From Pseudomonadota bacterium (lineage in GTDB: Bacteria; Pseudomonadota; Gammaproteobacteria; Poriferisulfidales; JAYYZZ01), in assembly GCA_036687665.1 (NCBI GenBank), contig JAYYZZ010000004.1, positions 22,330 to 86,329 on the forward strand: DNA of 64,000 bases, read 5' to 3'. The number at the start of each line of letters is the position of its first letter. Position 1 is the stretch's first letter. Below the pieces are notes generated by a model. The model saw nothing but the letters and a program-made list of their open reading frames with translations. It was not told the origin of the DNA and ran no database searches. Of this stretch, positions 14,727 to 35,449 are shown in pieces. A program made the translations under genes and the position numbers.

Positions 14727-15899
14727 TTGAAAAAAACAATACTAATCATACAAGGTTCTTTAGAAATTGGTGGCACAGAAGTTCACATGTCACGTATTTT
14801 GCCACATCTAGTTCAATCTGGATGGATTATCACAATTTTTCTTATTTCGTGCAGAGGCCCTTTAGCAAATAGATTAGAGCAAGATGGTATTAAATTAACT
14901 GGACCTGGAGCTAAACTCTATTCCTCATCTCCAAATTTCATTGCACGCGGAATAAAAATCGTTCAAACTTTTATACTGCTTACAATACATCTCATCAGAC
15001 ATAGACCTGCAATTGTTCATTCTTTTCTTCCTGAGGCGTATGTAATAGGTGGACTATGTGCGTGGTGGACAAGGTCTAAAACATTTATTATGAGTAGGCG
15101 CAGCTTAAACTACTACCAGAGGAGCCACCAGATACTGCATCAATTCGAGCTGTTACTACATTCACAAACGCGTTATTTCTTAGCTAATAGCAAAGCTGTT
15201 GAACTGGATTTACAAAACGAGGGGGCTGACTTAAATAGGATCAAGTGTATTTATAATGCAATTAACGTAAAGGATGTAGAAAAAAATATAAAAAAATATA
15301 ATAGATCTAGTGTCAGAGAAAAATATAATATTTCAGATAATTCTCTCGTCTTGCTGAAAGTAGCAAATCTTATTGCATACAAAGGTCATGTAGATTTATT
15401 AAATGTGTTGGCCACAATAGGAGAAGATCTACCTGAAGACTGGTGTTTAGTGTGCGCTGGTAGGGATGATGGGCTTTTGCCGCGTTTGCAATCAATAGCG
15501 ACTGAGAATCAGATTGCTCACCATATACACTGGCTTGGAGAAGTAGAAAATATATTCGAATTACTCGCTGCTGCAGATATTGCTTTGCTTTGCTCACACG
15601 AAGAAGGTTTCCCTAATGTTGTATTAGAATACATGGCTGCCGAATTGCCTGTCATTGCAAGTGACGCAGGTGGAGTTCCAGAAATAATTACTCATGATGT
15701 GAACGGGAAGATATTTCCAGTTCATAACTTAGGCCAGCTAGCATCATTTTTAACTGAATTATGTAATGATAGAGAACAGTGTATCGAGCTTGGACGTGCC
15801 GGCAAAGAAGAAGTAACTTCTGTATTTACTGAAGAAAAATGTGTAAATGAATATATAAAGATATATGAACAGTTGCTGGAAGAAAAAACACGCAAATAA
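14727..15899 (+). CDS. glycosyltransferase, GT4 (GT-B fold)
   Basis: 390 aa. N-terminal GSLEIGGTEVH and C-terminal EGFPNVVLEYMAAELPVIASDAGGVPEII. TTG start, needed to keep the N-terminal Gly-rich motif. Confidence 0.85.
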   Translation: MKKTILIIQGSLEIGGTEVHMSRILPHLVQSGWIITIFLISCRGPLANRLEQDGIKLTGPGAKLYSSSPNFIARGIKIVQTFILLTIHLIRHRPAIVHSFLPEAYVIGGLCAWWTRSKTFIMSRRSLNYYQRSHQILHQFELLLHSQTRYFLANSKAVELDLQNEGADLNRIKCIYNAINVKDVEKNIKKYNRSSVREKYNISDNSLVLLKVANLIAYKGHVDLLNVLATIGEDLPEDWCLVCAGRDDGLLPRLQSIATENQIAHHIHWLGEVENIFELLAAADIALLCSHEEGFPNVVLEYMAAELPVIASDAGGVPEIITHDVNGKIFPVHNLGQLASFLTELCNDREQCIELGRAGKEEVTSVFTEEKCVNEYIKIYEQLLEEKTRK

Positions 15900-15925: not shown

Positions 15926-17875
15926 ATGTGCGGAATAACTGGCTACTTAAGCAAAAATAATAATTTGAGTCATGATCATCTAAGTCACGCAATAGAAAAC
16001 ATGACCCAATCATTAGCACACCGAGGGCCTGATAATCGCGGTGTCTGGGTAGATGCAAATGATCAAATTTGCCTCGGCCATAGCAGGTTAGCAATCATAG
16101 ACTTATCCGCAACTGGACATCAGCCTATGGTCTCGAGCTCTGGGAAGCTTGTCATAACTTATAACGGTGAAATTTATAATACCAAGGAATTACGGGATGA
16201 GTTGACGCAATTAGGACACCAATTTAAAGGTCATTCAGATACCGAAGTTATTCTTCAAGCTTGCCAAGCGTGGGGGGTCGAGGATACAGCTTCCAAGCTC
16301 ATTGGAATGTTTGTGTTTGCTGTGTGGAATACAGAAAAAAAAGAACTATCTTTAGTGCGAGATCGCCTGGGAATTAAGCCTATCTATTGGAGTTGCCCTG
16401 GCAAAAGTTTTTTATTTGGCTCAGAATTAAAAGCACTACGTTTAATTCATGAATGCCCTACAGAGATAGACAGAGATGCATTGTCTTTATATATGCGTCA
16501 TAACTACATCCCCACCCCTTATACGATATACAAAGATGTGCAGAAGCTAGAGCCCGGTTCTATTTTAACTTTTTCCTCAACGGGTGAAATCAAGATTCAA
16601 CAATATTGGTCATTGGAGCAAGTTGTTAGTGATACCGCAAAAGATCGTAGACAAAATGCGGATCCTACAGACAGTTGCAACGAACTTGAGCAGTTATTAT
16701 CAGATGCGGTAAGCAGGCGCATGGTCTCAGATGTTCCTTTGGGAGCTTTTTTATCTGGAGGCATTGATTCTTCTTTAGTAACAGCCTTAATGCAATCTAA
16801 TAGCAACACCCCTGTCAAAACATTTTCAATTGGTTTTCACGAACAGGGTTATGATGAGGCACTATATGCAAAGAAAGTCGCTGCCCATCTAGGAACAAAC
16901 CATACAGAATTATATGTCACACCTGAAGATGCTTTGAATGTTGTGCCAAGCTTAGCTCACATGTACGATGAACCGTTTTCAGATTCATCACAAATACCTA
17001 CATTTCTTATTTCAAAGTTGACACGCGAACATGTAACTGTAGCGTTATCTGGAGATGGCGGAGATGAAGTTTTTGCTGGTTATAACAGATATTTTTTAAC
17101 TCAAAAAATACAGCGGCTACTAAAGGTTATGCCTGGGTTTAGTAAAGAATTATTTTCAAAGCTAATCATGTCTGTGCCCCCAGCTAAATGGACATCATTA
17201 TTTTCAGTTTTACCTGCTTCTATGCAACTTCCGCAAACAGGAGACAAGTTTCATAAGTTAGCTCGTCTCTTAACACTAGAAGAAGAAGAGTTGTATCATG
17301 AACTTATTAGCCATTGGGATGACACAGAGTCATTAGTACTTGGATCAAAAGAGCCACGTAAAAAATACATAGATAGTAACTTAGCTCTTACCAATACAGA
17401 AAAAATGCAATACATAGATACTCTTACTTATCTGCCCGATGACATACTAGCTAAGGTCGATAGGGCTAGCATGTCTGTTTCTCTTGAAGTCAGAGTACCT
17501 TTGTTAGATCACAGAGTATTAGAATTTGCATGGGGGATGAATGAAAACATGAAAATAAGAAATAAATCAGGCAAATGGGCCCTCAAAGAAATACTTAAAA
17601 AATATATACCACAAGAATTAACTGATAGACCAAAAATGGGATTTGGTGTGCCGATTGATAGCTGGTTAAGAGGACCTCTGAGAACGTGGGCAGAAGATTT
17701 ATTAAATTATAACTCGATCAGAGAGCAGGGTTATCTAAATGCAGATATGGTAAAACATAAGTGGGAAGAACATATTTCTGGAAAAAGAAATTGGCAGTAT
17801 CATCTGTGGGATGTATTGATGTTTCAATCTTGGCTTAACGAATGGCACAAGCCTAAAAACATGAAAAATTACTGA
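15926..17875 (+). CDS. asparagine synthase family glutamine amidotransferase (AsnB/WbpS-like)
   Basis: 649 aa. Ntn nucleophile MCGITGY and PP-loop SGGIDSS. Such proteins are common in O-antigen/capsule loci as amidotransferases. Confidence 0.9.
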   Translation: MCGITGYLSKNNNLSHDHLSHAIENMTQSLAHRGPDNRGVWVDANDQICLGHSRLAIIDLSATGHQPMVSSSGKLVITYNGEIYNTKELRDELTQLGHQFKGHSDTEVILQACQAWGVEDTASKLIGMFVFAVWNTEKKELSLVRDRLGIKPIYWSCPGKSFLFGSELKALRLIHECPTEIDRDALSLYMRHNYIPTPYTIYKDVQKLEPGSILTFSSTGEIKIQQYWSLEQVVSDTAKDRRQNADPTDSCNELEQLLSDAVSRRMVSDVPLGAFLSGGIDSSLVTALMQSNSNTPVKTFSIGFHEQGYDEALYAKKVAAHLGTNHTELYVTPEDALNVVPSLAHMYDEPFSDSSQIPTFLISKLTREHVTVALSGDGGDEVFAGYNRYFLTQKIQRLLKVMPGFSKELFSKLIMSVPPAKWTSLFSVLPASMQLPQTGDKFHKLARLLTLEEEELYHELISHWDDTESLVLGSKEPRKKYIDSNLALTNTEKMQYIDTLTYLPDDILAKVDRASMSVSLEVRVPLLDHRVLEFAWGMNENMKIRNKSGKWALKEILKKYIPQELTDRPKMGFGVPIDSWLRGPLRTWAEDLLNYNSIREQGYLNADMVKHKWEEHISGKRNWQYHLWDVLMFQSWLNEWHKPKNMKNY

Positions 17876-17940: not shown

Positions 17941-18768
17941 ATGTCTTTATTAATTGAAAACACCGAAGAAAGAAGTTTATACACACCTTTCAGAGCAGAT
18001 TTTTTGCAAGGTGTTACGAGTTGGCGTTTATGGTTATTCCTGGGTGTGTATGAGGTTAGACGCCGCTATAGACGTACAATCATAGGACCATTTTGGAATA
18101 CCATTAGTTTAGCTGTTTTTGTTTTTGTTGTGGGTTGGATTGGCGCTGGCCTATGGAGAGAGGATGTCGGGGAGTATATGATTTTTCTTTGCAGTGGCAT
18201 GCTTGTATGGTTTCTAGTAGCACCAATTATGAATGAGTCAACAGGGATATTTATTGACAACGAAAGTGTAATTACTAATTACAAAATAGAAGCAACTCTT
18301 CTTGCTGTCGTATGCGTAGTTAGAAATCTTTTTGTGTTTGCACATAATTTTTTGTTGTACGTAGCTTTTTGTTTGTTTTTTGGTTTTATGCCAGCATTTC
18401 CAGAAGTTTTATTGTTTATTCCTGGGCTAGTAGTTCTTGCTATCAACGGCATATGGGTTTCATTATTGATAGGTCTTCTTTGTACTCGATTTAGAGACAT
18501 TAAACAAATCATCACACTCTTTACTTCCATTGCAATGTTTATCACACCTATTTTTTGGACAGCAAGCAAGCTTGAGAGCACTCAACACACAGTATTTGTA
18601 ATGGGGAACCCACTGTATCATTTGTTGGAGATTGTGAGAGCACCTTTATTAGGAACTGTGCCGTCAGTAGAAAATTATCTTGCTGTATTGCTAATTACAG
18701 CGGGCGGCTTTTTACTAACGTTTGCTTTGTATAAAAGTAAATATCATAGACTTGTTTTTTGGTTATAG
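17941..18768 (+). CDS. ABC-2 type polysaccharide export permease (Wzm/KpsM/TagG-like)
   Basis: 275 aa, about 6 predicted TM segments, immediately upstream of a matching ATPase. Confidence 0.8.
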   Translation: MSLLIENTEERSLYTPFRADFLQGVTSWRLWLFLGVYEVRRRYRRTIIGPFWNTISLAVFVFVVGWIGAGLWREDVGEYMIFLCSGMLVWFLVAPIMNESTGIFIDNESVITNYKIEATLLAVVCVVRNLFVFAHNFLLYVAFCLFFGFMPAFPEVLLFIPGLVVLAINGIWVSLLIGLLCTRFRDIKQIITLFTSIAMFITPIFWTASKLESTQHTVFVMGNPLYHLLEIVRAPLLGTVPSVENYLAVLLITAGGFLLTFALYKSKYHRLVFWL

Positions 18769-18778: not shown

Positions 18779-19558
18779 ATGGCAACTTTAAAACTTCAAA
18801 ATGTTTCGTTGGATTTTCCGCTATATGAAGTGAGCAAGAGCTTGCGCTCAATGTTTTTAGCTAAATATTCAAATTCTAAGGTTAAACGCAACACTGGTGG
18901 TGAAATTGACTGGGAATCTAAGACAACAAAAAAGACCGTTGTTCATGCTTTAAAAAATATTGATTTATCTTTAACCGACGGAGATCGTGTTGCAATTATC
19001 GGTCACAACGGTGCAGGTAAAACAACAATGTTAAAAGTTATGGCGGGTATTTACTGGCCAACACGAGGTGATGTTAGGGCTCAGGGTTCGATTCTCCCAA
19101 TGTTTGGTGTTGTGCCGGGACTTTCTCCTGAAGACAACGGCTATGAAAATATACAAAGCTATTCAATGTTTTTTCGCTTGACCCCTGAACGGATAACTGA
19201 AGTAACCAACAATGTTGAGGAAACTTGTGGTCTTGGTGAATATTTATCCCTACCAGTGAGGACTTATTCATCAGGAATGCAGATGCGCCTTGCATTCTCA
19301 TTAATGATGGCATTAGAAGGGGATATTATGCTTTTGGATGAAGAGCTCGCAACAGGAGATACTGAATTTCATAAACAAGCACATAAATCTTTTATAGATA
19401 AAGTGCAAACTACGAAAATAGTTGTATTAGCGACGCATTCACAAGACGCTGCTGAGCGTCTTTGTAAAAAAGCTATGCTTATAGAAGCCGGTGAAATAGT
19501 CGAGTATGATTCTATTGAAACAGTGTTTAACGTTTATTCCAAAAGAGCTAAGGCATGA
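18779..19558 (+). CDS. polysaccharide ABC exporter ATP-binding protein (short Wzt/KpsT/TagH-like)
   Basis: Start moved to the ATG at 18779. Walker A GHNGAGKTT, signature SSGMQMRL, Walker B IMLLDE. About 260 aa, so there is no C-terminal carbohydrate-binding extension. Confidence 0.88.
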   Translation: MATLKLQNVSLDFPLYEVSKSLRSMFLAKYSNSKVKRNTGGEIDWESKTTKKTVVHALKNIDLSLTDGDRVAIIGHNGAGKTTMLKVMAGIYWPTRGDVRAQGSILPMFGVVPGLSPEDNGYENIQSYSMFFRLTPERITEVTNNVEETCGLGEYLSLPVRTYSSGMQMRLAFSLMMALEGDIMLLDEELATGDTEFHKQAHKSFIDKVQTTKIVVLATHSQDAAERLCKKAMLIEAGEIVEYDSIETVFNVYSKRAKA

Positions 19559-19989
19559 GCAAAGGACAAATAGCACATGAATCAGTAGCCGATTCTAAAG
19601 TTGAATTAAAAGCTTCCGACCGGTCTTTTGGATACTTGTTTACAGTTGTTTTTGCAGCAATTGGGGTGTACGGCTTTTGGCGAGGTTCCGAGATAAGTTA
19701 TTATTTTTTTGCAGTAGCTATATTATTTTTGTCTCTTGCGATAATTTATCCACAGTGCCTGAGGCCACTTAACAAGGCATGGTTTTTATTCGGGCTTTTA
19801 CTGCACAAAATAGTTAACCCTCTGATTTTGGGGCTATTATTTTATGTTACTATATTACCTGCAGGTATCATTATGCGATTGCTTGGGAAAGATTTACTTA
19901 ATTTAAAATATGACAAGGATGCAAAATCTTATTGGATCGACCGCGAACCCCCAGGACCTAAACCAGACTCAATCAAAAATCAGTTTTAG
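19555..19989 (+). CDS. SxtJ-like small membrane protein
   Basis: 144 aa, 3-4 hydrophobic helices. C-terminal pattern RLLGKDLLNLKYDKDAKSYWIDRE....KNQF recalls the SxtJ family. ATGA overlap with the upstream ATPase. Followed by DUF5989 and a carbamoyltransferase. Confidence 0.6.
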   Translation: MSKGQIAHESVADSKVELKASDRSFGYLFTVVFAAIGVYGFWRGSEISYYFFAVAILFLSLAIIYPQCLRPLNKAWFLFGLLLHKIVNPLILGLLFYVTILPAGIIMRLLGKDLLNLKYDKDAKSYWIDREPPGPKPDSIKNQF

Positions 19990-20000
19990 GATGCAATAAT

Positions 20001-20150
20001 ATGTCTTTTTTATGTGAATTATGGGCTTTTCTTAGTGCTAGAAAAAAATATTGGTTATTGCCAATAATAATTCTCGCTGTCTTATTTGGTGGGTTACTTG
20101 TGCTTGCACAAGGTTCTGCAGTCGCTCCCTTTATTTATACAATTTTTTAA
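20001..20150 (+). CDS. DUF5989 (SxtK-like) small membrane protein; not in the ORF track
   Basis: My own translation: MSFLCELWAFLSARKKYWLLPIIILAVLFGGLLVLAQGSAVAPFIYTIF (49 aa). This is the characteristic RKK.WLLP...GS..APFIYT.F pattern of the family usually found beside NodU/CmcH carbamoyltransferases. Confidence 0.7.
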   Translation: MSFLCELWAFLSARKKYWLLPIIILAVLFGGLLVLAQGSAVAPFIYTIF

Positions 20151-20167
20151 AGATAAGGAGCAGATAG

Positions 20168-22009
20168 TTGCATATATTAGGAGTTTCTGCGTTCTATCAT
20201 GATAGCGCTGCAGCAATATTGCATGATGGTGAAATCATCGCAGCTGCCCAAGAAGAACGATTCACTCGAAAAAAGCATGACCCAAGCTTTCCTGAGCATG
20301 CCGTCGCTTTTTGTTTGCAAGAGGCGAATGTTTCTATTGATGATGTTGATCATATAGTTTTTTTTGATAAACCCTTTTTAAAATTCGAACGTCTGCTGGA
20401 AACTTACGTGGCTTTTACTCCTAGAGGTTTTAAATCTTTTAAAATGGCAATGCCAATTTGGTTGCGTCAAAAGCTTTTTCAAAAATCTTTGTTAGTAGAT
20501 ACATTCCACAAATATGGAAGCAATAAAGATGATCTGTTTGCAAAGCTATTGTTTTCTGAACACCATTTGAGTCACGCTGCTAGTGCGTTTTACCCTTCAC
20601 CTTACGAAGAAGCTGCCATCCTTACTATGGATGGTGTCGGGGAATGGGCAACTGCTTCTGCAGCAATTGGGGTTGGCAATACATTAGATATTATTAAAGA
20701 AATTCATTTCCCGCACTCTTTAGGCTTACTGTATTCAGCGTTTACATATTACATAGGGTTTAGGGTAAATTCTGGAGAGTATAAAGTAATGGGTTTAGCG
20801 CCATACGGAGTACCACGTTATACAGATTTAATTTACGATAATCTAATTGATATTAAAGATGACGGATCATTTCGTCTAAATCTATCTTTTTTTGATTATT
20901 GCACAGGCCTTACCATGACAAACAAAAAGTTTGATGATCTGTTTGGCGCACCACCACGTAAGCCTGAGGACTTACTTACACAAAAACATATGGATATAGC
21001 TGCATCTATTCAGGTTGTTACTGAAGACATTATGTTGCGTTTAGCAGCATCATTAAGAAAAGAAACTGGAATGCGCAATTTATGTCTAGCTGGAGGTGTT
21101 GCATTAAACTGTGTTGGTAATGGGAAAATTTTAAAGGAAAATATTTTTGATTCAATTTGGATACAGCCTGCCGCAGGTGATGCAGGTGGTTCTTTGGGTG
21201 CTGCATTATATGCACATCATGCGCTATTAAATAAACCAAGAAAAAAACTCAATGGAAGCAGAGATCAAATGAATGGTGCATATCTGGGGCCTTCATATAC
21301 AAATGCTGAAATTGAACAGGAACTAAAAGAAAGTGGCGCTGTTTACCACCATTTATTGGACGATGAGTTAATAACAGTAACAGCCCAAGCATTGGCAGAT
21401 GAGAAAGCTGTTGGTTGGTTTCAGGGGAAGATGGAGTTTGGACCACGCGCATTGGGTGGACGTTCTATACTGGGCGACCCACGTTCTCCAAGTATGCAAA
21501 AAACTCTTAACCTAAAAGTAAAGTATAGAGAAAGTTTTCGGCCATTCGCGCCCTCAGTTTTAAGCGAAGACCTCTCTGATTGGTTTGAGCTAGCTGCACA
21601 CTCTCCTTATATGCTATTAGTTTCTGATGTGCATAAAAAACATCAGCGACAAATGACAGAGGAAGAAAAGGGTTTATTTGGTATTGAGAAGCTTAATGTC
21701 CCAAGGTCAAATATCCCTGCAGTGACACATGTAGATTATTCAGCACGCATACAAACAGTCCACAGCGATACCAACCCAAGATATCATATGCTTATCAACA
21801 AATTTAAGGAAATAACTGGCTGTCCAGTTTTGGTGAATACTAGCTTCAATGTGCGCGGAGAGCCTATTGTTTGTACTCCTACCGATGCTTTTAAGTGTTT
21901 TATGGGAACTGAGATGGAAGTGCTAGCCATTGGCAATTGTATATTGTATAAAGAAGAGCAAGATAAGTCACTTGCATTAGATTATAAATCTGAATTTGAA
22001 TTAGACTAA
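20168..22009 (+). CDS. carbamoyltransferase (NodU/CmcH/SxtI family)
   Basis: 613 aa. N-terminus ILGVSAFYHDSAAAILHDGEIIAAAQEERFTRKKHD. C-terminal VLVNTSFNVRGEPIVCTP. TTG start with AAGGAG 7 nt upstream. Confidence 0.92.
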   Translation: MHILGVSAFYHDSAAAILHDGEIIAAAQEERFTRKKHDPSFPEHAVAFCLQEANVSIDDVDHIVFFDKPFLKFERLLETYVAFTPRGFKSFKMAMPIWLRQKLFQKSLLVDTFHKYGSNKDDLFAKLLFSEHHLSHAASAFYPSPYEEAAILTMDGVGEWATASAAIGVGNTLDIIKEIHFPHSLGLLYSAFTYYIGFRVNSGEYKVMGLAPYGVPRYTDLIYDNLIDIKDDGSFRLNLSFFDYCTGLTMTNKKFDDLFGAPPRKPEDLLTQKHMDIAASIQVVTEDIMLRLAASLRKETGMRNLCLAGGVALNCVGNGKILKENIFDSIWIQPAAGDAGGSLGAALYAHHALLNKPRKKLNGSRDQMNGAYLGPSYTNAEIEQELKESGAVYHHLLDDELITVTAQALADEKAVGWFQGKMEFGPRALGGRSILGDPRSPSMQKTLNLKVKYRESFRPFAPSVLSEDLSDWFELAAHSPYMLLVSDVHKKHQRQMTEEEKGLFGIEKLNVPRSNIPAVTHVDYSARIQTVHSDTNPRYHMLINKFKEITGCPVLVNTSFNVRGEPIVCTPTDAFKCFMGTEMEVLAIGNCILYKEEQDKSLALDYKSEFELD

Positions 22010-22021: not shown

Positions 22022-23164
22022 ATGACAACTAATAAAATATTAACAGTAGAGGAATATAATCAAGCGGAGAAACACGCTCTTCGTGATGTGCCAAATAGAA
22101 TTATAGAAATCACACAGCCAGAGGCATTCCAGTTTACAGGTTATCCGTCAAGAATAGATGATATTTCTGCTTTATCAAGATACGTTGAGGTTATGCACGA
22201 AGGTAAAATTGAATATATATGGAAGAATTATTTGCTTGAATACATAACGAAAGAAGAACATGAATTAATTAAAGACATTGCAGAGCAAACATTTTCGATG
22301 TCAAGCAGCTTGTTTTCAAAAGGATCAGTACCCACATCAAATCTACTATTAGCATTGAGTATTTATCGGCAAATTAAGTTTATTTTTCCTGAATGCAAAC
22401 AGACTATTTTTGAAATCGGAGGTGGGTGCGGATACTTGGGTGCTCTGCTTGCATCAGCGGGATATAAAGTTATTTCTATGGATATCACCCAAGTTTTTTA
22501 TTTATACCAAAGTTGCCTATACCGCACCATATTCAAGGATAAATTTGTTGAGCTAGTTAATAACAAAGATAGCGCTGCAAATGGTGATGGCGCATCTATA
22601 ACCCATGTGCCGTGGTGGGACTTTTACACTCCAAACCAAGAATATTCATATGTAGCGGATGCAATCACATGCAATCATTGTTTATGTGAGATGCACCCAT
22701 GGGCTTTACAGTATGTAATTAGCGCCGGCAAGAAGCTGATTGCGAAATCAACCGAAGATAAAGCATGCTTTGTATTTCAAGCTTATGGTTCTCCTGTAAA
22801 GAGATCAGCTGAATGGGCGTGCATGTCTTTTTACCATAGAGATTTTAAGATATTACACAATGATCCTTGCGTATCAGTATATGCAGACGAGCATGGCCCA
22901 TCAGCAGCCGGTCACTGCGTTTTGCCAGATTCCCCTGAGCTTGTGCAAATACAAGATGCTTACAAACCACCAGTTTTTTCAAATAACGATAATCCAATTT
23001 CTCAATTGATATGTGAGGGACGCGATTTTCATAAAACAAAATCAACAGGTTCCAATGTAGATTTGCCTGCGGTATTAAGATCGCTTTACAAAATTGCTGG
23101 CAATGACGATCTCAGAACGGATGACGAGAAGTTTTTTGATGCTGCTGATGTTGGCTTGTTCTAA
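22022..23164 (+). CDS. putative class I SAM-dependent methyltransferase-like protein (unassigned family; paralog of 37930-39057)
   Basis: 380 aa. Motif-I-like IFEIGGGCGYLGALLASAGYKVISMDI. Shares PNRIIE, SAL.RYV.VMHEG, HVPWW.FY, TCNH.L.EMHP and DDEKFF with the paralog. Confidence 0.5.
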   Translation: MTTNKILTVEEYNQAEKHALRDVPNRIIEITQPEAFQFTGYPSRIDDISALSRYVEVMHEGKIEYIWKNYLLEYITKEEHELIKDIAEQTFSMSSSLFSKGSVPTSNLLLALSIYRQIKFIFPECKQTIFEIGGGCGYLGALLASAGYKVISMDITQVFYLYQSCLYRTIFKDKFVELVNNKDSAANGDGASITHVPWWDFYTPNQEYSYVADAITCNHCLCEMHPWALQYVISAGKKLIAKSTEDKACFVFQAYGSPVKRSAEWACMSFYHRDFKILHNDPCVSVYADEHGPSAAGHCVLPDSPELVQIQDAYKPPVFSNNDNPISQLICEGRDFHKTKSTGSNVDLPAVLRSLYKIAGNDDLRTDDEKFFDAADVGLF

Positions 23165-23175: not shown

Positions 23176-24297
23176 TTAACTTTTATCTGAAAATTGCTGG
23201 GATAAGTCTGCAATCTTTGCGTGAGGAATAAATACTAGCATAACCATATAACAGCCTATACACAGGGCTTTCATTAGACTATCTATAAAGGATAGCAAAC
23301 TCCTTTTTGTTGTATACCAAATTTCAAAAATGAATGATTTATTATGTTCTGCATCATTTACACCAAATTTAAAATCAGGTGAAGCTGTTTCGTCTCCTGG
23401 ATTGTAAAACGTCCCAAATATTTTGTCCCATACAACAAGCTGTGTTGAAAAATTTGAATCTTGGTGTTCTCTTTTAATTGAGTGATGTATTTGGTGGTAC
23501 TTTGGGGAGACTACGAGCCAGCGACCCACCCAACCAAAATCCCACTGCAAATTTGAATGAATAATATTTTGTTGGCATTGATTAATAATTGTGAATATCA
23601 TAAAAGTCTCAACAGGTGTGCCAAGTAATGCTAAAGGTATACCTGACACAACATTAGCCCAAAGCTCTTCTAAAGGGTTAATTCTGCCAACTGTGATTAC
23701 ATTGAGTTTATTTGCAGAATGGTGCACTGAGTGCTGATACCATAAAAAGTCAAATATATGTTGACAGCGGTGTGTCCAGTACACAAAAAAATCTCTTACA
23801 ATAAAATATATGCAAAACTGTGTGACCGGGTTTAATGTTTCTATTAACTTTAGATCGACTATTATCCTAAATGAGTGTGATGCGTTTGCAAATACAGCAT
23901 AGGTCAGCGTATAAAAAATAATATAACCAAAAGAAAACCAATTAAAAAATACGTGACAAAGAATATCTATTCGTGCGCTTGCACTAGGAGTAATGATAAG
24001 TCTGCGAATTGCACATTCTTTCCAGCCGTGCACTAAAAATTCTAAGAGCAAGACTGATATAGGAACAAGCGCAATAAAAATAGCTATGTCTTTTGTAAAT
24101 CTGCCAGGTACATGGCTTTGCAACATGCTAATAGGGTTTGGTGTTGATATACCTACAACAATCATGCCAAGCAATATTAGTGCTGCGATTGTAACTGCAC
24201 CAATCGCATTTTTCTTGTCTTCACTAGAATAAGTTCGTGACATAAATATTGCACGAACGAAATTTTCTGATATTTTTTGTATGTTTAGTATTTTCAA
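23176..24297 (-). CDS. fatty acid hydroxylase / sterol desaturase superfamily membrane di-iron enzyme
   Basis: 373 aa and polytopic. Histidine boxes HRCQH, HSVHH and HQIHH. Confidence 0.8.
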   Translation of the reverse strand: MKILNIQKISENFVRAIFMSRTYSSEDKKNAIGAVTIAALILLGMIVVGISTPNPISMLQSHVPGRFTKDIAIFIALVPISVLLLEFLVHGWKECAIRRLIITPSASARIDILCHVFFNWFSFGYIIFYTLTYAVFANASHSFRIIVDLKLIETLNPVTQFCIYFIVRDFFVYWTHRCQHIFDFLWYQHSVHHSANKLNVITVGRINPLEELWANVVSGIPLALLGTPVETFMIFTIINQCQQNIIHSNLQWDFGWVGRWLVVSPKYHQIHHSIKREHQDSNFSTQLVVWDKIFGTFYNPGDETASPDFKFGVNDAEHNKSFIFEIWYTTKRSLLSFIDSLMKALCIGCYMVMLVFIPHAKIADLSQQFSDKS

Positions 24298-24360: not shown

Positions 24361-25482
24361 GTGATGAGATTTTTGCCGAAAAGATTTGTTTTTCCTTTGT
24401 ATTTGATTTGTGTTGTCACAATTGGTGTTGAATTTTTTACTCAGTTTTTAATTGAAAAGAATGATCAATATTATATCTACCCACCATATTATAAATTCAT
24501 GCAAAAATCTAACCCCGAATTCACCCCTGGTGTTTACACTGATGCACATTTTCGTGCAAATGAACTGGGTATTAGGTCTGAGAGTTACCAAGGGCAAGAC
24601 AATGTTATTTTAATACTAGGCGGCAGTACGGCGATAGATGTAATGCTAGATCAGGAACTTACATGGGCGTACCAATTGCAAAGATTACTTACCAAAGAGA
24701 GTAAGTGGGTTTCAACATGGGTAGGTAATCTTGGCAATAGTGCACGTGCATCTGAAAACCACGTTGATTACATGGAAAAGATTTTTCCATACATGCCAAA
24801 GCCAGATTTTATTTTAGTTCTTTTAGGCGCTAACGATATGCAGCTTGCGCTAAAGTCTAGCTATGGCGAGGGAGAGCTCAATGATCATAATTTATTAAAT
24901 TATAACGTCCACCCGGACAATGATTTTATTTCAAATTTTGGAATATATCGTTTTTACAGACAAATGCATCAATGGTATCTAAGAGATAAATATGCATTTA
25001 TTGGCAACGGTGCGGGGTTCAAGCAATGGAGGGATTGCCGTCAATCTGCACCTGCACATACCCATGTTGACAAGTTGCCTGACTTATCTGAAATGCAGCA
25101 AGTCATGTGGCATAGCCTTGAAAGCATGGAGTATTTATCACGTCAGTATAAAGCGAAAATAATTTTTATAACACAACCTACGTTATATAACACTTCAGTA
25201 GGTGATGCAGAAAAGTCAGTGCTTATGGCTGGTGGAGTAGGGCCAAACCAAGTTTGGTGTAAGGATAAAAAATATTATTCAATAGGAGCGCTTGCCAAAG
25301 CAATGATAGAGTTTAACAATATCACAAGACGCTTTTGCAAAACCAAAGGTCTTGATTGTATAGATCTAGCAAAAAAATTGCCGCCTAAGTTAGATAATTA
25401 TTATGATGAAATGCATTATAGCGAGCTAGGTGCTTTAAAAGTTGCAACAGTCATAGCTCAAGAAATGTCCAAAATGAAATGA
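24361..25482 (+). CDS. membrane-anchored SGNH/GDSL-fold protein (GGS variant), paralog 1
   Basis: N-terminal TM. Block I ILILGGSTAID, block II GNLGNSA, block III LLGANDM, block V YDEMHYS (DxxH). Start is the GTG at 24361 or the ATG at 24364. Confidence 0.65.
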   Translation: MMRFLPKRFVFPLYLICVVTIGVEFFTQFLIEKNDQYYIYPPYYKFMQKSNPEFTPGVYTDAHFRANELGIRSESYQGQDNVILILGGSTAIDVMLDQELTWAYQLQRLLTKESKWVSTWVGNLGNSARASENHVDYMEKIFPYMPKPDFILVLLGANDMQLALKSSYGEGELNDHNLLNYNVHPDNDFISNFGIYRFYRQMHQWYLRDKYAFIGNGAGFKQWRDCRQSAPAHTHVDKLPDLSEMQQVMWHSLESMEYLSRQYKAKIIFITQPTLYNTSVGDAEKSVLMAGGVGPNQVWCKDKKYYSIGALAKAMIEFNNITRRFCKTKGLDCIDLAKKLPPKLDNYYDEMHYSELGALKVATVIAQEMSKMK

Positions 25483-26726
25483 ATACCCTTATATGCAAGA
25501 GTTTAGTATTTTTAAGGACATTGTTTACTATACTTATAGTAACTCTTGTCCTTTTTGTGCTTATCAATTTGTTATCTTTTCATGTAATACAAACATACCC
25601 TGAGCTATTATTAACTGACGCACAAAGAACAAATGAGAATACACGTGCAGTTAGGGAAAAAATGCTACCTGAGCATTTAGCTTTGAAATGGTACGAAATA
25701 GAATCTATTGATGAGGTAAAGGATATTTGGGAGGAGTTTTTTAGCGGGCCTCAAGAGTATGAAGCTTATACACAATACCGTCATAAGCCACTTATGGGTA
25801 AGTATTATTTAGTTACCAAAGAAGGTTACCGTCTTTCTCGTGAGCCCGGACCTTGGCCACCTGACAAAAGTAATTACAATATTTTCTTTTTTGGTGGTTC
25901 AACAGCTTTCCAACCAGGTCCTGCCTGGACATCTGTTGCATCTTATTTGCAAGATATATTAAATGAAAAACAAAAGTTAACTGAGAAAGTGTTTGTATAT
26001 AATTTTGGGCGTTCTGGGTATTTTACAACACAAGAGCAAATTCTTTTCCAAGAGCTGCTCAAGAGCAATTATATACCTGACGCTGTTGTTTTTTTTGATG
26101 GTCTGAATGATTTTTGTTATACAGATGGCAAGCCAGGAGGGTGGACAAATGTTGCTAAGACGTATAACGACAAAATTGAAGCTCAGATAAAAATAGAAAG
26201 AGAATACAATGCAACAATACGTTGGAATTTAATTAAAACCTTTCTAGTTGAACTACCTGCGACAAAGTTAGCAAGAAGTATTGCCGATTATGTTCAGTAT
26301 AAGGAGATAAAATATACTGGAACAACTGTTAACGATGACCCCAAGGCAGCCCCAGATAAAGTGCTAATGACTGTCATACAAAGATATATTCATAATCTCA
26401 GACAAATAGAAGGAATTTCAAAAGAATACAATATACAACCTATTTTTGTTTGGCAGCCAATACCAACGTATAAGTACAATGCTGAAGCACATATGTTTTA
26501 TCCCAATATTATGGGTTGCCATAGAAATTCAATAGTAGGCTACCCTTTAATGGCAAACTACTTAAAATCGCACCCATTAGAGGAAAATTTTATTTGGGCG
26601 GCTGATATGCAAGAAAATATTAATGAACCTTTATATATTGATGCATTTCATTACACAGCACCAATGTCAAAAATGATTGCCAACTACATTACAGACGCAC
26701 TAATCTCTAGGAAATTACTGCAATAA
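25479..26726 (+). CDS. membrane-anchored SGNH/GDSL-fold protein (GGS variant), paralog 2
   Basis: N-terminal TM. Blocks IFFFGGSTAF, YNFGRSGY, FFDGLNDF and IDAFHYT. ATGA overlap with the upstream paralog. Confidence 0.65.
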   Translation: MNTLICKSLVFLRTLFTILIVTLVLFVLINLLSFHVIQTYPELLLTDAQRTNENTRAVREKMLPEHLALKWYEIESIDEVKDIWEEFFSGPQEYEAYTQYRHKPLMGKYYLVTKEGYRLSREPGPWPPDKSNYNIFFFGGSTAFQPGPAWTSVASYLQDILNEKQKLTEKVFVYNFGRSGYFTTQEQILFQELLKSNYIPDAVVFFDGLNDFCYTDGKPGGWTNVAKTYNDKIEAQIKIEREYNATIRWNLIKTFLVELPATKLARSIADYVQYKEIKYTGTTVNDDPKAAPDKVLMTVIQRYIHNLRQIEGISKEYNIQPIFVWQPIPTYKYNAEAHMFYPNIMGCHRNSIVGYPLMANYLKSHPLEENFIWAADMQENINEPLYIDAFHYTAPMSKMIANYITDALISRKLLQ

Positions 26727-26738: not shown

Positions 26739-27662
26739 ATGAGCCTCGATAAAAAGTTAACCTGTGAAAAACATGAGATTGACCGTGCTGTTGATAACTT
26801 GAGTGAGCTGCATTGCGTTAAAATAAAAAATGTACTCAGCAAAGATGTATTGATTGATACTGCCACTACAGCTAAAGAAATTTTTTCTACCTACGGTCAC
26901 CTTAGCAAACAAGAGCAGGTAGACGCCAACATTCCCTATGGCGTAAGCCAACATATGGCAAATATAACAATGTTGGATGAAAATCCATCAAAGTTGCAAT
27001 ATTTGTTAATAAGAGAAATTTATCAATCACATTTATGGGAGATAATTTGTAAATATCTTAAATCCAGAGATATTATTTCCCTCTTACAGATATCAAGTCT
27101 CAGGTTTATTGATCCGGATCAGCCACATCTTGCGATACCTTTTCATCAAGATGGATTTGGGTTACCAGACGAAAAAGATTATATGCTCATAAGCGTATGG
27201 TTTTTACTTGAACCTAATAAAGCAGGGAAAGGCACAGACGTATCTTGTGTTGAATTTTTACCAGCAAACATTAACCATCTTTTGTCAACTGATATGCAGA
27301 CTGGTAAAAAGAGCAGCTATGCAAGCTCCAGTACCTCAAAGAAAGAACTAGAAAAACTCTATAACGACGGAGCTGAAGTTTGGTCTCCAGATATATCTAT
27401 TGGTGACTGTTTTATGTTCGACTCATACAATTTGCACCGCACGGGCTCTTCTTTGCATTGCAATCACAAGAGATATTCGGCGGAGATAAGATTTCTAGCA
27501 TGTACCCCTGAAACGGTGTATGAAATTAAAGCAAGAAGAAAGAACAATATCCTTGAGATGTACTACGAAACAGACGATGTATATAAGATTATTACACCCA
27601 CTGAAATTAATTGGACTGACCATAGAAGAAGTAAATTTCAAACTGTGCAGTGGGAAAAGTAA
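26739..27662 (+). CDS. PhyH-like Fe(II)/2-oxoglutarate dioxygenase family protein
   Basis: 307 aa. HxD facial-triad candidate PFHQDGF, distal His YNLHRTGSS, and Arg in RYSAEIRF. Confidence 0.55.
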   Translation: MSLDKKLTCEKHEIDRAVDNLSELHCVKIKNVLSKDVLIDTATTAKEIFSTYGHLSKQEQVDANIPYGVSQHMANITMLDENPSKLQYLLIREIYQSHLWEIICKYLKSRDIISLLQISSLRFIDPDQPHLAIPFHQDGFGLPDEKDYMLISVWFLLEPNKAGKGTDVSCVEFLPANINHLLSTDMQTGKKSSYASSSTSKKELEKLYNDGAEVWSPDISIGDCFMFDSYNLHRTGSSLHCNHKRYSAEIRFLACTPETVYEIKARRKNNILEMYYETDDVYKIITPTEINWTDHRRSKFQTVQWEK

Positions 27663-27672
27663 TGAAGGCAAT

Positions 27673-28614
27673 TTAAATATACTTCTTACAGAAATCTTCT
27701 TTTTGGTCAACAAGTCTTAGCTCGAGACTTTCTCTTCCTGAGGTCATATCGGGTGTTATGTGTGTTCGATGTATTGTCCAGTTGCTAAAGATTGCTATAT
27801 CGCCTTTTTTTACATTTAAAAAATCTCTTTGTTTGTCATCAAACTCTTTGTGTATATTTTTAGGATCATATTTTTCGTATTCTATTTTAACAACACCATC
27901 TGTGACATAGTAGTCTAAGTAAGACTGAGATCTTTCTAACCCCACCTTTATAATTTCGAGACTCGGTGCTTTATATTTTAATCCTGCATTCGAAAAAGGT
28001 ATCCAAATGTTTAATACAAGTTGCGTGGTTGCATGATAAAAAATGTCGCTGTGATACTCAGTAGGCAACCCCCATTCCTCTCCGTCAGCATGTTTATTAC
28101 CTTCTAAAAAGTCTGAAATGCTTACTTGTGGATGCATCTTGCGAGTGTGTGATGCATTTGAGACGCTAAATGAGCAATTAGGAAAAGCGTCGTATAGCAG
28201 TGACCAAAATGCCGGGAATGAGATTAAGTCAAAGTAACTGTTCTTGTAGTCATGTGCATGCCGGAACATACTCTCTGATATTGCATCTTGTGCTAGGAGT
28301 ACTTCGAAGAATCCTTTGTCTGGAATTTCATGAGTAAGTGATAGTTTACTTCTGAGTTTTTCATCATCTAGCACAGCCATATCTATGTCGTGCCAATACT
28401 TACTGGCGTGAGGCTGAAGATATTTTCTGAAATAGTCTATTTTTTCAGAAGAAATAGCTTCTCTGAGTATAACGTAACCGTTTTCTTTAATTATAGAGTC
28501 AAATAATTGATCTTTTGTAGCATCTTTGAAAAGAAGATCGCTTTCTGCTGGAAGATCGCTTTCTGTTGGAAGATCGCTTTCCGCTGTTGGTTTTTTTAAA
28601 AATTTTCTGAACAT
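27673..28614 (-). CDS. PhyH-like Fe(II)/2-oxoglutarate dioxygenase family protein with N-terminal hexapeptide repeats (paralog of 40328-41386)
   Basis: 313 aa. Motifs TEYHSDIFYH (HxD) and SNWTIHRT. N-terminus carries three (A/T)ESDLP repeats. Confidence 0.55.
   Translation of the reverse strand: MFRKFLKKPTAESDLPTESDLPAESDLLFKDATKDQLFDSIIKENGYVILREAISSEKIDYFRKYLQPHASKYWHDIDMAVLDDEKLRSKLSLTHEIPDKGFFEVLLAQDAISESMFRHAHDYKNSYFDLISFPAFWSLLYDAFPNCSFSVSNASHTRKMHPQVSISDFLEGNKHADGEEWGLPTEYHSDIFYHATTQLVLNIWIPFSNAGLKYKAPSLEIIKVGLERSQSYLDYYVTDGVVKIEYEKYDPKNIHKEFDDKQRDFLNVKKGDIAIFSNWTIHRTHITPDMTSGRESLELRLVDQKEDFCKKYI
28533..28586. repeat. 3 x 18-bp in-frame tandem repeat (gaagatcgctttc[tc]g[ct]tg)
   Basis: Read directly: three contiguous 18-nt units differing by single bases. 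They encode AESDLP-TESDLP-AESDLL at the N-terminus of the minus-strand CDS 27673-28614. Confidence 0.9.
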
Positions 28615-28620
28615 GGAAGA

Positions 28621-29949
28621 TTATTTAATTTTTTTAGCAATATGGTTTGCTATTGCTTTCATCAGTATATTATTGCCTTTTTCTGTGTAGTGACAACAAT
28701 CATCAATGAAATTTTGATGGCTTAAATCGCTGAATATTTTTGTTGCATCAAAAAAGTCAACGCCAGCGGCAACCAGATTCTTTTCTTGTTTTAAAAAAGC
28801 ATTATATCCAAAATTTACGGGTTCAATATATTTTTTATAAATATGGTCTTTAGAGCGTGGAACATATTTCCCAGATTTTCTATACCATTGATTAGGTTGC
28901 AGGACATGCAAGTAGTGCATATCGCTTTGAGACTTTGCAATGCTATGCATTAAAACTGAAGAATTTCTCCAAGTCTCTGCAATGTATGTATAAATGTCAT
29001 TTATTTTGTTTGTTTTGCTTTCTTTGTACTTCGCAAGAAATCGGGATAAATTACCTATATCTGGGTTACGTTGTAGTCGGTCTTTAGTGCCTTTATTCTG
29101 ATAGCGGTAGTAATAACTAAAGGTTTTCCTTATGAAGTAACACGCTGCAGTTATACAGTCATTTACTGCAGCTTCCCTGTGATTGCTAGCTTGCAACTGA
29201 TAATAATTATATTCCACACTTTCAGATAACATGGATTTTATGTGATCTGCTTCTATTGCGTTACCCAAGCCCTTCCATGTTTGTGCAGCCGGATAAAGTA
29301 CTTCAATTTTATCCTCGGCATAATTTGTATAACCACTGGCAACCTCATTAAAACCATCAATGTTGATAACAATATCAAATTTTTGTTTTGCCGTAGCATA
29401 GTAGGCAAGAGTCATTAGTTGTTGGGGTTGCTTGAACCCTGACATTGCAAAATTTAAAACCCTTATATTTTTATCGCTAAACTTTTTTATTCTCTTTAAT
29501 TCATTCTGCAATACTTGTGTTTTCATTGCTGTTGTTGCTAAGCCTAATCCTACAGAACCACCAAAAATAGCAACAATAATGTCATCTTTTGCCTTTCTTG
29601 TAATAGGGTAGTCACAGCAATCCGGGTCTTTATTGTAAAATGGAGTGTAATATTGGAAACCGTGGTTGTTGTTTTTGTACATGACCGAGTCTTCATCGTG
29701 TTTTAGGTGTTTAAGGTCTATAACGTCCTCTCTGTCAGGATGCAATGTATACCCTATATAAGGGTGAAACACTGATTGTTCAACGGTGAAAATATGAGGA
29801 TCAATATTAGATTTTGATATCTCTTCTATCTCTCTGGCGTAGAACAGTTCGTTTTCTTTGTAGAAAAAATACCCGACACCTAATGTTTCTAGAAGCACAA
29901 AAGCGATTAGTAGATTGACAGATACTATAAAGATGTTTTTCTTTATCAT
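28621..29949 (-). CDS. membrane-anchored SGNH/GDSL-fold protein (GGS variant), paralog 3
   Basis: 442 aa with N-terminal TM. Blocks VAIFGGSVGLG, LNFAMSGF, INIDGFNEV and DDCCHYTEKGNNILMKAIANHI. Confidence 0.65.
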   Translation of the reverse strand: MIKKNIFIVSVNLLIAFVLLETLGVGYFFYKENELFYAREIEEISKSNIDPHIFTVEQSVFHPYIGYTLHPDREDVIDLKHLKHDEDSVMYKNNNHGFQYYTPFYNKDPDCCDYPITRKAKDDIIVAIFGGSVGLGLATTAMKTQVLQNELKRIKKFSDKNIRVLNFAMSGFKQPQQLMTLAYYATAKQKFDIVINIDGFNEVASGYTNYAEDKIEVLYPAAQTWKGLGNAIEADHIKSMLSESVEYNYYQLQASNHREAAVNDCITAACYFIRKTFSYYYRYQNKGTKDRLQRNPDIGNLSRFLAKYKESKTNKINDIYTYIAETWRNSSVLMHSIAKSQSDMHYLHVLQPNQWYRKSGKYVPRSKDHIYKKYIEPVNFGYNAFLKQEKNLVAAGVDFFDATKIFSDLSHQNFIDDCCHYTEKGNNILMKAIANHIAKKIK

Positions 29950-29962
29950 TACCTAGTAGTTT

Positions 29963-31405
29963 TTAAGATAAAAACTGATCTCCTGTTATCTGATTGAATC
30001 TGAGCACTTTATTGTAATCACTGCATTTTTTCATATTTGTTGCATCAGATTGAGAAAAAGTTATTTCTGTATTGCCAAGCTTGTAGTAATTAAAACCATC
30101 ACTTGGTTGCATAGACCCTATAGTATGGTGCGTTTTTGGTCGGACTTTGTATTCAGTATTATTTAGAAACACTTCTTCAGGAATAATAAATTGCCTTAGC
30201 CATTTAATTACAGTATTTCTTTCTTTAACGTCGTGCAATTTTGTAATGATATTTTGAACTTTGTCATCTAAAATTTCGTTCTCTGGAATCAATAAAACAT
30301 TTTTATCAGTTTTATTTCTAACCCTGCTTGCTATGCCCAATTCTATGAGCATAGCAAGAAGTGTTGCAGCATTATCATTACCTTTGACATATAAATCTGT
30401 CCATAAACTATATATTTCACGCCCTGCTGTTAGATGATTTACATGCATATTTGATTCATGTTCTGCAATCTCCCAATCTTTCTCATTAATATCGGCGTAA
30501 TGTACACGGCCGGGTTGTCTTATCATTAGATCACAAGTTTTATTTGCTTTTTCGAAAAGCGCCCACCATTTCATAAAATTTAACGAATTAAATGGCATGT
30601 TCTCTGTATACCATGGCCTATCTTTTCCGGGTATGGCTAAACTCAACATAAATAAGTCATCGGAATCTGTAATAAAGTGAATTTCATTTTCCTTAAAAGG
30701 CCACGGAAGCATTCTGTGGTCAGTAAGTTCATACAAGTCCCCCCTAAAAAACCATGGATTGTGAGCGGTAAAGGTGGTCAGCACACCTTGATTCTTTATT
30801 GGCCTTATTATTACTTCTGGATGTCTTGGATACCAATTACTATCACGCACAAATGAAGCATAAAGTGCATGTAGATTTTCTAGTCCAATTTTGACCAAAG
30901 TACGCGGCTCAAAGCTTATTACTTTATTTTTTGCTGGATATTTTTTATCTAAATACGGAAGTAACCTGGATGTGTCTGACCTTATATGGTTGTTGAAGAA
31001 TATAGCTGTTTTTCCATTTTTAGCAAGGTCTGCTAGATGTTTGAATGAACCGTCAGACCATAGAACATCGGGGGGTAGAAATAAGCAATAACTCTTATTA
31101 AGCGCAGACTGATCTATTGCGTATTGCCAAACTTCATGGTGTGTAGCGAATGGCGTCTCAAGTTGCGCTGGGTCAAGAGTTATAAATTCAACTGTACAAT
31201 ATTCTAGCAGTTTATTGAAAAATTCATTTTCAGATATTATTTTCTGATCTGGTCCTGTAGCAAAAATAAAAAATATTGTCTCAAAAGTCTTGGAGAATTC
31301 TGGGAAGTTATTCGGTGATAAAAGTGTTCTCAAATGGTAGTTTAAGAAGACATTCATGTGCCATTCTCCCCATACAGTTAGAACCATGTCGCATTTCATT
31401 TTCAT
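29963..31405 (-). CDS. uncharacterised ~480 aa protein, paralog A (possible GT-A-like N-terminal half, degenerate FAS1-like C-terminus)
   Basis: Shares VLTVWGEWH / LFLPPDVLWSDGSF / DSDDLFMLSLA with 32550-34001 (VIVAWGDWH / NLWPDVIWPDGAM / NEDCFILSIA). No signal peptide or TM seen. Confidence 0.35.
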   Translation of the reverse strand: MKMKCDMVLTVWGEWHMNVFLNYHLRTLLSPNNFPEFSKTFETIFFIFATGPDQKIISENEFFNKLLEYCTVEFITLDPAQLETPFATHHEVWQYAIDQSALNKSYCLFLPPDVLWSDGSFKHLADLAKNGKTAIFFNNHIRSDTSRLLPYLDKKYPAKNKVISFEPRTLVKIGLENLHALYASFVRDSNWYPRHPEVIIRPIKNQGVLTTFTAHNPWFFRGDLYELTDHRMLPWPFKENEIHFITDSDDLFMLSLAIPGKDRPWYTENMPFNSLNFMKWWALFEKANKTCDLMIRQPGRVHYADINEKDWEIAEHESNMHVNHLTAGREIYSLWTDLYVKGNDNAATLLAMLIELGIASRVRNKTDKNVLLIPENEILDDKVQNIITKLHDVKERNTVIKWLRQFIIPEEVFLNNTEYKVRPKTHHTIGSMQPSDGFNYYKLGNTEITFSQSDATNMKKCSDYNKVLRFNQITGDQFLS

Positions 31406-31406
31406 G

Positions 31407-32543: not shown

Positions 32544-32549
32544 TGTAAA

Positions 32550-35256: not shown

Positions 35257-35296
35257 ATATCGACTGACGGAAAATTCTATCTCATATACTTAAATT

Positions 35297-35449
35297 ATGC
35301 TGTCTTTTTTCAAAGAGTTTTTGTTATTTCTCATACAAAGACGCAAGATCTGGTTAATACCACTTTTCCTTGCGATGGCACTTGTTGGTAGTTTTATTGT
35401 TCTCACTGAAGGTACAGCTATCGCACCTTTTATTTACACTGTATTTTAA
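35297..35449 (+). CDS. second DUF5989 (SxtK-like) small membrane protein; not in the ORF track
   Basis: My own translation: MLSFFKEFLLFLIQRRKIWLIPLFLAMALVGSFIVLTEGTAIAPFIYTVF (50 aa). Same RRK.WL.P...G.AIAPFIYT.F signature as 20001-20150. The 5' end of the ORF-track entry 35370-36470 overlaps it in another frame. Confidence 0.65.
   Translation: MLSFFKEFLLFLIQRRKIWLIPLFLAMALVGSFIVLTEGTAIAPFIYTVF

Follow-up and report, generated by a model that had tools for sequence, protein, structure and literature searches.

What are two small membrane proteins of families known from saxitoxin gene clusters, together with a carbamoyltransferase, doing directly behind the genes of a glycan exporter? The question is raised by a 64,000-nucleotide stretch of DNA (hereafter the window) from a gammaproteobacterium of the Poriferisulfidales (assembly GCA_036687665.1, contig JAYYZZ010000004.1, positions 22,330 to 86,329). 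Here, genes for an SxtJ-family protein, a DUF5989/SxtK-family protein and an O-carbamoyltransferase (hereafter the trio) follow the genes of a Wzm/Wzt-type ATP-binding cassette (ABC) exporter. We found that the trio itself is an ordinary, standard copy of a very widespread cassette. Its junction with the exporter ATPase gene wzt is specific to one lineage and offers the best clue so far to the acceptor of the carbamoyl group. Positions below are those of the window, and features lie on the forward (+) strand unless marked (-).

A standard copy of a widespread cassette

The SxtJ-family gene (19555-19989) encodes a small membrane protein of 144 amino acids (aa) that matches PF19588 over residues 23-115 (34.7 bits, gathering score 24.4). 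Eleven nucleotides (nt) downstream lies the DUF5989/SxtK-family gene (20001-20150), whose single-pass membrane protein of 49 aa is matched over its full length (1-49 of 49) by PF19451 (87.8 bits, cut-off 27). After a further 17 nt comes the gene of a 613-aa O-carbamoyltransferase of the NodU/CmcH/TobZ superfamily (20168-22009), in which both halves of the family are present: Carbam_trans_N is matched over 1-346 of 346 (358.7 bits) and Carbam_trans_C over 1-170 of 170 (251.9 bits). The transferase starts with a TTG codon 7 nt downstream of an AAGGAG, and other sources call the same 613-aa product. The first-pass annotation of this DNA had already proposed the three families, the lengths of the two small open reading frames (ORFs), the two gaps and an ATGA stop-start overlap with wzt at 19555-19558. 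Every one of these coordinates was confirmed, and all three families scored over the Pfam gathering thresholds when checked with hidden Markov models (HMMs).

Species-representative genomes were scanned with the SxtJ motif YWIxRxPPGP (at least 586 genomes), and the neighbourhoods analysed comprised 80 loci from species genomes and 80 from metagenomes, plus several look-ups. The complete set of three genes was detected in 145 loci. In 143 of these they lie on one strand with SxtJ first, DUF5989 second and the transferase third, mostly with gaps of 1-22 nt, and the earlier proposal that the three genes form one unit is well borne out. Carriers among the Alphaproteobacteria include Reyranella, Magnetospirillum, Terasakiella, Rhodospirillales, Kiloniellales and Bradyrhizobium/Afipia; others belong to the Beta- and Gammaproteobacteria, Binatia, Gemmatimonadota and Latescibacterota. 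About 65 TARA/GOS-type contigs (L098-L169) with a GC content of 23-31% are SAR11-like, and in these the gaps shrink to 1-2 nt and SxtJ to 127 aa. A Pelagibacter preprint mentions ornithine carbamoyltransferase as its only carbamoyltransferase.

This fixed order and spacing, together with the roughly 70% identity of DUF5989 and the transferase across phyla, show that the small ORFs are real genes. That the 49-aa and 144-aa ORFs are unexpressed chance ORFs, as their small size might suggest, is effectively refuted. Both score over Pfam thresholds, both have thousands of homologues of the same length, and contigs assembled from metatranscriptome runs overlap both. The DUF5989 codon changes between the window and a same-lineage contig (L001), four nonsynonymous and one synonymous, would lean towards chance ORFs, but these very small numbers are too few to be informative.

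The two small membrane proteins

Homologues of the window SxtJ, named 'SxtJ family membrane protein' at NCBI, number more than 1000 in a word-indexed search. An exhaustive profile search returned 13,933 clusters at 50% identity with E ≤ 1e-3, and 7,393 at 1e-10. As a small helical membrane protein that adjoins an O-carbamoyltransferase and exceeds the gathering score, the window protein has the features of the family. Its median identity to the SxtJ proteins of about 140 foreign loci is 49%, and the next-nearest SxtJ outside its own lineage is at most 57% identical. The most conserved part lies outside the Pfam model: the C-terminal motif YWIxRxPPGP (residues 126-135, 19930-19959) consists of invariant or near-invariant alignment columns.

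An AlphaFold model of SxtJ (predicted local distance difference test, pLDDT, 84.7; predicted TM-score 0.58) places helices at residues 22-42 and 48-64 and a long one at 66-109, with the invariant tail as coil at a pLDDT of about 60-75. A fold search with this model against the PDB gave no significant match (best E 2.9). Counted across the family, the loop at 66-78 has a net charge of +2.4 and the flank behind the last helix (107-121) of +2.6, while the N-terminus is slightly negative. By the positive-inside rule the best fit is a predicted topology with the N-terminus inside, the first two transmembrane helices as a hairpin, helix 3 re-entrant or in the membrane plane, and a cytoplasmic tail.

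The DUF5989 protein has 3922 homologues, and the top 120 matches are all 49-50 aa long. Some are named 'DUF5989 family protein' (NCBI) and some 'SxtK' (UniRef); the latter are 78-80% identical to the window protein, which links it by name to SxtK of the saxitoxin cluster. Median identity to the DUF5989 proteins of about 140 foreign loci in other phyla is 71%. The N-terminus carries on average 4.7 Lys/Arg across the family and the C-terminus is uncharged, a pattern that fits a putative N-in, C-out orientation. No mention of DUF5989 by name was found in the literature. Two apparent SxtJ-DUF5989 fusions (P0231, P0263) were rejected: a Trp stands exactly at the SxtJ stop position, and they probably arose from TGA translated as Trp by the gene caller.

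A trio-linked carbamoyltransferase subfamily

The window transferase aligns over its full length with the solved structures of NovN, GdmN and TobZ (270-316 bits), as well as with 7xb6. It is not a NodU equivalog, scoring 156 bits in a partial match to NF041651 (cut-off 1000). The motifs HHLSH (132-136), D155, D338 and GPRALGGRS (425-433) align with NovN and are invariant in 43 members of the subfamily; we take these residues to have the catalytic and metal-binding roles of their TobZ counterparts.

Of special interest is what sets the trio-linked enzymes apart. At every locus with examinable upstream sequence the two membrane proteins precede the transferase, and the median identity between the window enzyme and those of about 140 foreign trio loci is 68%. 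When 43 non-redundant trio-linked transferases were aligned, half of the positions (50%) were at least 90% conserved, and three near-invariant signatures stood out. The first covers residues 67-106 (20366-20485; DKPFLKFERLLETY...EKLFQK). The second is an insertion of about 20 residues (~495-514, 21650-21709), LFGI(D/E)KLNVxRS, near-invariant in the 43 enzymes and also missing from the solved NovN and 7xb6. The third is a C-terminal extension that ends in FELD (595-613, 21950-22006). All three are missing from a paralogue without SxtJ and DUF5989 in locus L088, and we infer that they are candidate docking surfaces.

This paralogue (L088:12560-14266, (-), 568 aa) lies 3.5 kb from the trio of that locus and adjoins a methyltransferase gene and an APS-kinase gene, such that two carbamoylation systems stand in one glycan locus.

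The junction with the Wzm/Wzt exporter

In the window the cassette sits within a run of genes on one strand: a GT4 glycosyltransferase, an AsnB-like protein, Wzm, Wzt, SxtJ, DUF5989, the carbamoyltransferase and an ORF of 380 aa (orf380). The Wzm-type ABC-2 permease (17941-18768, 275 aa) matches Pfam ABC2_membrane with 40.2 bits (threshold 26.9), and the Wzt-type ATPase (18779-19558, 259 aa) matches ABC_tran with 69.1 bits. The longest ORF of the latter begins with TTG at 18722, but a start at the ATG at 18779 yields 259 aa, the product also called by other sources. With the permease and its cognate ATPase only 10 nt apart, they form a Wzm/Wzt pair. Among NCBIfam models they are best matched by the galactan exporter equivalogs (NF050108 and NF050109), Wzm/RfbD with 195 bits under a cut-off of 380 and Wzt/RfbE with 201.6 bits over residues 6-255 under a cut-off of 400. 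Wzt consists of the nucleotide-binding domain only (6-255 of 259 aa); a C-terminal carbohydrate-binding domain is missing.

From Wzm on, the intergenic distances are 10, -4, 11, 17 and 12 nt, the -4 being the ATGA that the wzt stop (TGA) and the sxtJ start (ATG) share. Same-lineage relatives from several marine metagenomes, with SxtJ proteins 93% and 89% identical to that of the window, retain this overlap. Contigs from metatranscriptome runs that are 94-99% identical to the window cover 19489-19777, 19736-19958, 20062-20225 and 20361-20511; the first bridges the end of Wzt and SxtJ and the third the DUF5989/transferase junction. These contigs agree with a single transcript. A scan for promoter-like sites gave fewer than expected from shuffled sequence, and one for terminator-like sites gave a number not clearly above that expectation; neither placed a site between the operon genes. 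Translational coupling of wzt and sxtJ is putative: the overlap is present and conserved, and an RNA-derived contig spans it. Further 4-nt ATGA overlaps occur at 25479-25482 and 57190-57193. They are common in this genome, which makes the wzt/sxtJ overlap a sign of operon membership and not of a special mechanism.

The first-pass annotation had called this tight linkage to an exporter unusual, and the survey of neighbourhoods agrees. The sequence upstream of SxtJ reaches 800 nt or more in 99 of the 139 non-self trio loci, and in none of these 99 does an ABC ATPase gene stand there. Generic ABC ATPases occur near the trio in four foreign loci, at distances of 1.2-8 kb. The order Wzm-Wzt-SxtJ was seen only in contigs of the same species level (L001-3, L090, L091), and neither the literature nor the 99 foreign loci hold a Wzm/Wzt-type exporter with a carbamoyltransferase cassette at its 3' end. 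The locus was detected in many marine DNA runs. The nearest relatives of the window enolase (2972-4255) are only 63-65% identical, its best matches being assorted metagenome-assembled genomes of gammaproteobacterial type; the host lineage is thus barely represented in public data beyond the same-species contigs.

Neighbourhoods of the cassette elsewhere

In other genomes the surroundings of the cassette vary. Reyranella-type loci have a TetR gene in front and a zinc alcohol dehydrogenase gene behind the trio. In marine Rhodospirillales it stands between RsmB and a series of Rpe, a heparinase-like gene and a UDP-sugar dehydrogenase, and in Magnetospirillum between a GmhA-like SIS gene and deoxysugar and glycosyltransferase genes, with lptE near. 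In a widespread marine organism (L170) it lies in a one-strand glycan operon of nonulosonic-acid type with UDP-GlcNAc 2-epimerase, CMP-sugar synthetase-like, GT1 and DegT genes and two AsnB-like genes. SAR11-like contigs have sulfotransferase, MBOAT, AT3-SGNH and Amj-like flippase genes at their flanks, and the flanks of other trios hold members of these four groups, GT87, GT1/GT4, Wzy_C, Polysacc_synt and a carbamoyltransferase without SxtJ and DUF5989. We counted Pfam families among 199 flanking genes of 37 loci with non-Reyranella contexts. Lipase_GDSL_2 is the top family on both sides of the trio; next come RsmB, M48 and Rpe (housekeeping synteny) and glycan families. The trio is mostly located among cell-surface glycan genes.

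What does the cassette carbamoylate?

With its cassette joined to a glycan exporter operon, the window gives the clearest genomic hint on the acceptor. We propose that the three proteins form a membrane-docked carbamoyltransferase unit that modifies the glycan exported by this cluster's Wzm/Wzt before export, a reading that we consider evenly poised between right and wrong. Like its solved relatives, the transferase would carbamoylate a hydroxyl, with carbamoyl phosphate and ATP as substrates. SxtJ and DUF5989 would anchor it to the inner membrane on the cytoplasmic side. The loop and the invariant C-terminal tail of SxtJ would face that side, as would the N-terminus of DUF5989, and the subfamily-specific elements of the transferase would provide the docking surface. 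In this lineage the cassette would have been inserted directly behind wzm-wzt and joined to their transcript, and since it appears to be co-transcribed with them, the likely acceptor would be the cluster's lipid-linked glycan.

The nature of this glycan may be read from the window itself. A group of genes on the opposite strand (41405-44977, (-)) encodes a UDP-galactopyranose mutase, two O-methyltransferases (one TylF-like) and an NAD-dependent epimerase. The cluster further holds PhyH-like dioxygenases and many ORFs with no Pfam match. The mutase, methyltransferase and epimerase genes suggest a decorated, methylated polymer with galactofuranose, and the acceptor carbamoylated before export would probably be of this kind.

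The first-pass annotation had offered carbamoylation of the exported glycan or of its lipid-linked end. A glycan acceptor is plausible, as the trio is commonly found among glycan genes; the variant in which the modification is an end-cap recognised by the exporter is not indicated, since Wzt has no C-terminal glycan-binding domain. The same missing domain bears on the further suggestion that the small proteins gate export, that is, that they couple the transferase physically to Wzm/Wzt so that only carbamoylated chains are released: there would be nothing in Wzt to read a terminal modification. The stop-start overlap of wzt and sxtJ, kept within the lineage, and the RNA-derived contig over both genes would suit such gating. 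Since the cassette exists with no exporter in essentially all other genomes, where its conserved surfaces evolved, we regard gating as highly improbable.

Several observations weigh against the pre-export unit as we propose it. The RNA-derived contigs are shallow and carry no strand information, and DNA carry-over is possible. A three-span SxtJ model violates the positive-inside rule, and a cytoplasmic tail requires that helix 3 be re-entrant or in-plane. No experimental role for SxtJ or SxtK was found in the literature, and NovN, GdmN and TobZ, the homologues with solved structures, are soluble enzymes that function with no such partners. Reyranella-type trio loci have no nearby glycan genes. 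Finally, the transferase is 65-72% identical across phyla, like the enolase at 63-65%, and is conserved while its neighbours vary, a poor fit to a serotype-specific glycan enzyme; this hints at one common acceptor instead of cluster-specific glycans.

The last two points belong to the main rival, that the adjacency to the exporter is incidental and the cassette modifies some other conserved envelope acceptor, such as a core sugar of lipopolysaccharide (LPS) as assigned for WapO, or a lipid-linked intermediate. The wzt overlap would then reflect compact operon packing and not a common substrate, in keeping with the frequency of ATGA overlaps in this genome. None of the 99 other loci ties the cassette to an ABC exporter, its contexts vary and some are not glycan loci, and the Magnetospirillum cassette stands behind a GmhA-like SIS gene, near lptE. 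Against incidental adjacency, the window cassette is embedded midway in a co-directional run and flanked on either side by glycan genes, every same-lineage contig has the same arrangement, and most non-Reyranella contexts are glycan loci. On balance we think it unlikely that the adjacency is incidental. A hopanoid or other lipid acceptor was also considered and dropped, as hopanoid genes were found in none of the neighbourhoods.

Possible SGNH/GDSL and AsnB-like partners

Membrane-anchored SGNH/GDSL proteins are a frequent fourth partner of the trio, one that the first-pass annotation did not include. In the window, two ATGA-overlapping ORFs (24361-25482, 373 aa; 25479-26726, 415 aa) have weak Lipase_GDSL_2 matches. 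On inspection of their sequences, the GGS, GxND and DxxH blocks are intact and hydrophobic anchors are present at the N-termini. A third ORF of the GDSL family (35370-36470) scores 37 bits (threshold 32.9), and in L041, L056 and L074 the gene immediately preceding SxtJ matches it with about 250 bits. With iterated profiles built from these three ORFs, we detected relatives at most 3 kb away in 45 of 140 trio loci; in 33 of the 140 they directly adjoin the trio (within 500 nt).

A comparable gene accompanies the saxitoxin genes. In the sxt gene table sxtL (GDSL-type) is listed after sxtI, sxtJ and sxtK, mirrored by the SGNH/GDSL relatives beside the trio, and a 2023 paper reports sxtJ, K and L together in the cyanobacterial suomilide biosynthetic gene cluster. 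SxtL has been proposed to remove carbamoyl groups.

These indications could be taken to mean that SxtJ, DUF5989 and the transferase pass a carbamoyl group or a carbamoylated carrier to the periplasm, where an anchored SGNH/GDSL protein would install it on the exported glycan or trim it. The layout of such a relay would resemble that of O-acetylation systems. In its favor are the MBOAT and AT3-SGNH genes that adjoin the cassette in SAR11-like loci, the prevalence of Lipase_GDSL_2 at both flanks, and the anchors and intact blocks of the window ORFs. However, SxtJ and DUF5989 have only about 3-4 helices in total, roughly two-thirds of the loci, including every Reyranella-type locus, have no nearby SGNH gene, and the activity proposed for SxtL is removal, not transfer. 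We know of no chemistry for moving a carbamoyl group across a membrane, and SGNH genes are common in glycan loci generally. We hold the relay, which would work by analogy, to be very unlikely.

The AsnB-like glutamine amidotransferase encoded just upstream of the exporter (15926-17875; Pfam Asn_synthase 408.7 bits, plus GATase domains) may be another functional partner, for example one that amidates a uronic acid of the same glycan. AsnB-like genes also directly adjoin the trio in the unrelated loci L031, L040, L048 and L170.

Comparison with known systems

The closest parallel is the saxitoxin cluster, where the same three families are adjacent: an O-carbamoyltransferase (SxtI), SxtJ (about 134 aa) and SxtK (about 54 aa; a 165-bp gene listed after sxtJ). 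The likeness is one of family and gene table, and the window transferase shares the GPRALG(G)RS motif that has been cited for SxtI. Saxitoxin papers from 2009 to 2026 propose the joint action of the three proteins as a hypothesis only, in agreement with the first-pass statement that the small proteins have no demonstrated function. The saxitoxin genes stand in the order I, J, K with the transferase first, whereas the transferase comes last in the window and in 143 of 145 loci, and the saxitoxin acceptor is a small soluble alkaloid whereas the window context is a glycan export operon. The 30 ORFs at 13572-47424 that were scanned with HMMs include no families of toxin biosynthesis, only glycan-type genes or genes with no assignment, and in this range the surroundings of the trio are not those of a saxitoxin cluster.

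TobZ, NovN and GdmN are homologous to the window enzyme over both the Kae1-like and the YrdC-like halves, and the metal-binding HxxxH and Asp positions are kept. They act alone on soluble antibiotics, whereas the window subfamily has the 67-106 segment, the insertion of about 20 residues and the FELD extension. The Pseudomonas protein WapO (PA5005), a putative 7-O-carbamoyltransferase of LPS-core heptose encoded in a glycan gene cluster, is by description and assignment an envelope-glycan carbamoyltransferase like the one proposed here. It differs in that its acceptor is the LPS core, not an ABC-exported polymer, and it is described with no SxtJ/SxtK partners. As for the exporter, the window shares with galactan-type Wzm/Wzt systems that have no Wzt binding domain the ABC-2 permease, the short ATPase and a UDP-galactopyranose mutase gene, with scores under the equivalog cut-offs.

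The O-acetylation systems of MBOAT/AT3 and SGNH proteins share with the trio loci a layout of cytoplasmic donor, membrane components and anchored periplasmic SGNH protein, side by side in glycan loci. SxtJ and DUF5989 have no sequence or fold relationship to MBOAT or AT3, and transfer across the membrane is pure analogy. The analogy can be extended: SxtJ, DUF5989 and their dedicated transferase, often with an anchored SGNH/GDSL protein, might be a general machine for carbamoylation of envelope glycans at or across the inner membrane, the carbamoyl counterpart of O-acetylation, and the saxitoxin genes a secondary recruitment of it. We regard this as quite unlikely. The cassette is abundant in SAR11-like and other marine bacteria.

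Other genes of the glycan island

The co-directional run opens with the GT4 glycosyltransferase gene (14727-15899) and ends with orf380 (22022-23164), 12 nt past the transferase. The latter has no Pfam match and a weak NCBIfam match to sugar O-methyltransferases (E 0.0013), and is also kept in the same-lineage contigs L001-3. Converging on the end of this operon is the gene of a fatty-acid hydroxylase/OlsE-like membrane protein whose N-terminus is extended by a long hydrophobic stretch (23176-24297, (-)). Within the glycan island, about 10 consecutive ORFs of 300-485 aa (26739-40323) match Pfam families marginally (PhyH-like, fasciclin, TPR) or not at all. A scan of the window found no tRNA or Rfam elements.

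Significance

The cassette is known in kind, and what is unusual here is its junction with wzt in one lineage. Its ubiquity and conservation, the subfamily signatures and the SGNH and AsnB-like partners may be worth more than the link to the exporter. Far from being peculiar to toxin clusters, the three-gene cassette is among the more widespread and conserved small gene modules of bacteria and is abundant in ocean metagenomes. The host of the window is uncultured, and the cassette is also present in the cultured and tractable Magnetospirillum gryphiswaldense and Terasakiella, which makes the role of the two small proteins testable there. If surface glycans are indeed carbamoylated, in abundant marine bacteria this would alter the charge and hydrogen bonding of the glycans and how phages and grazers recognise them.

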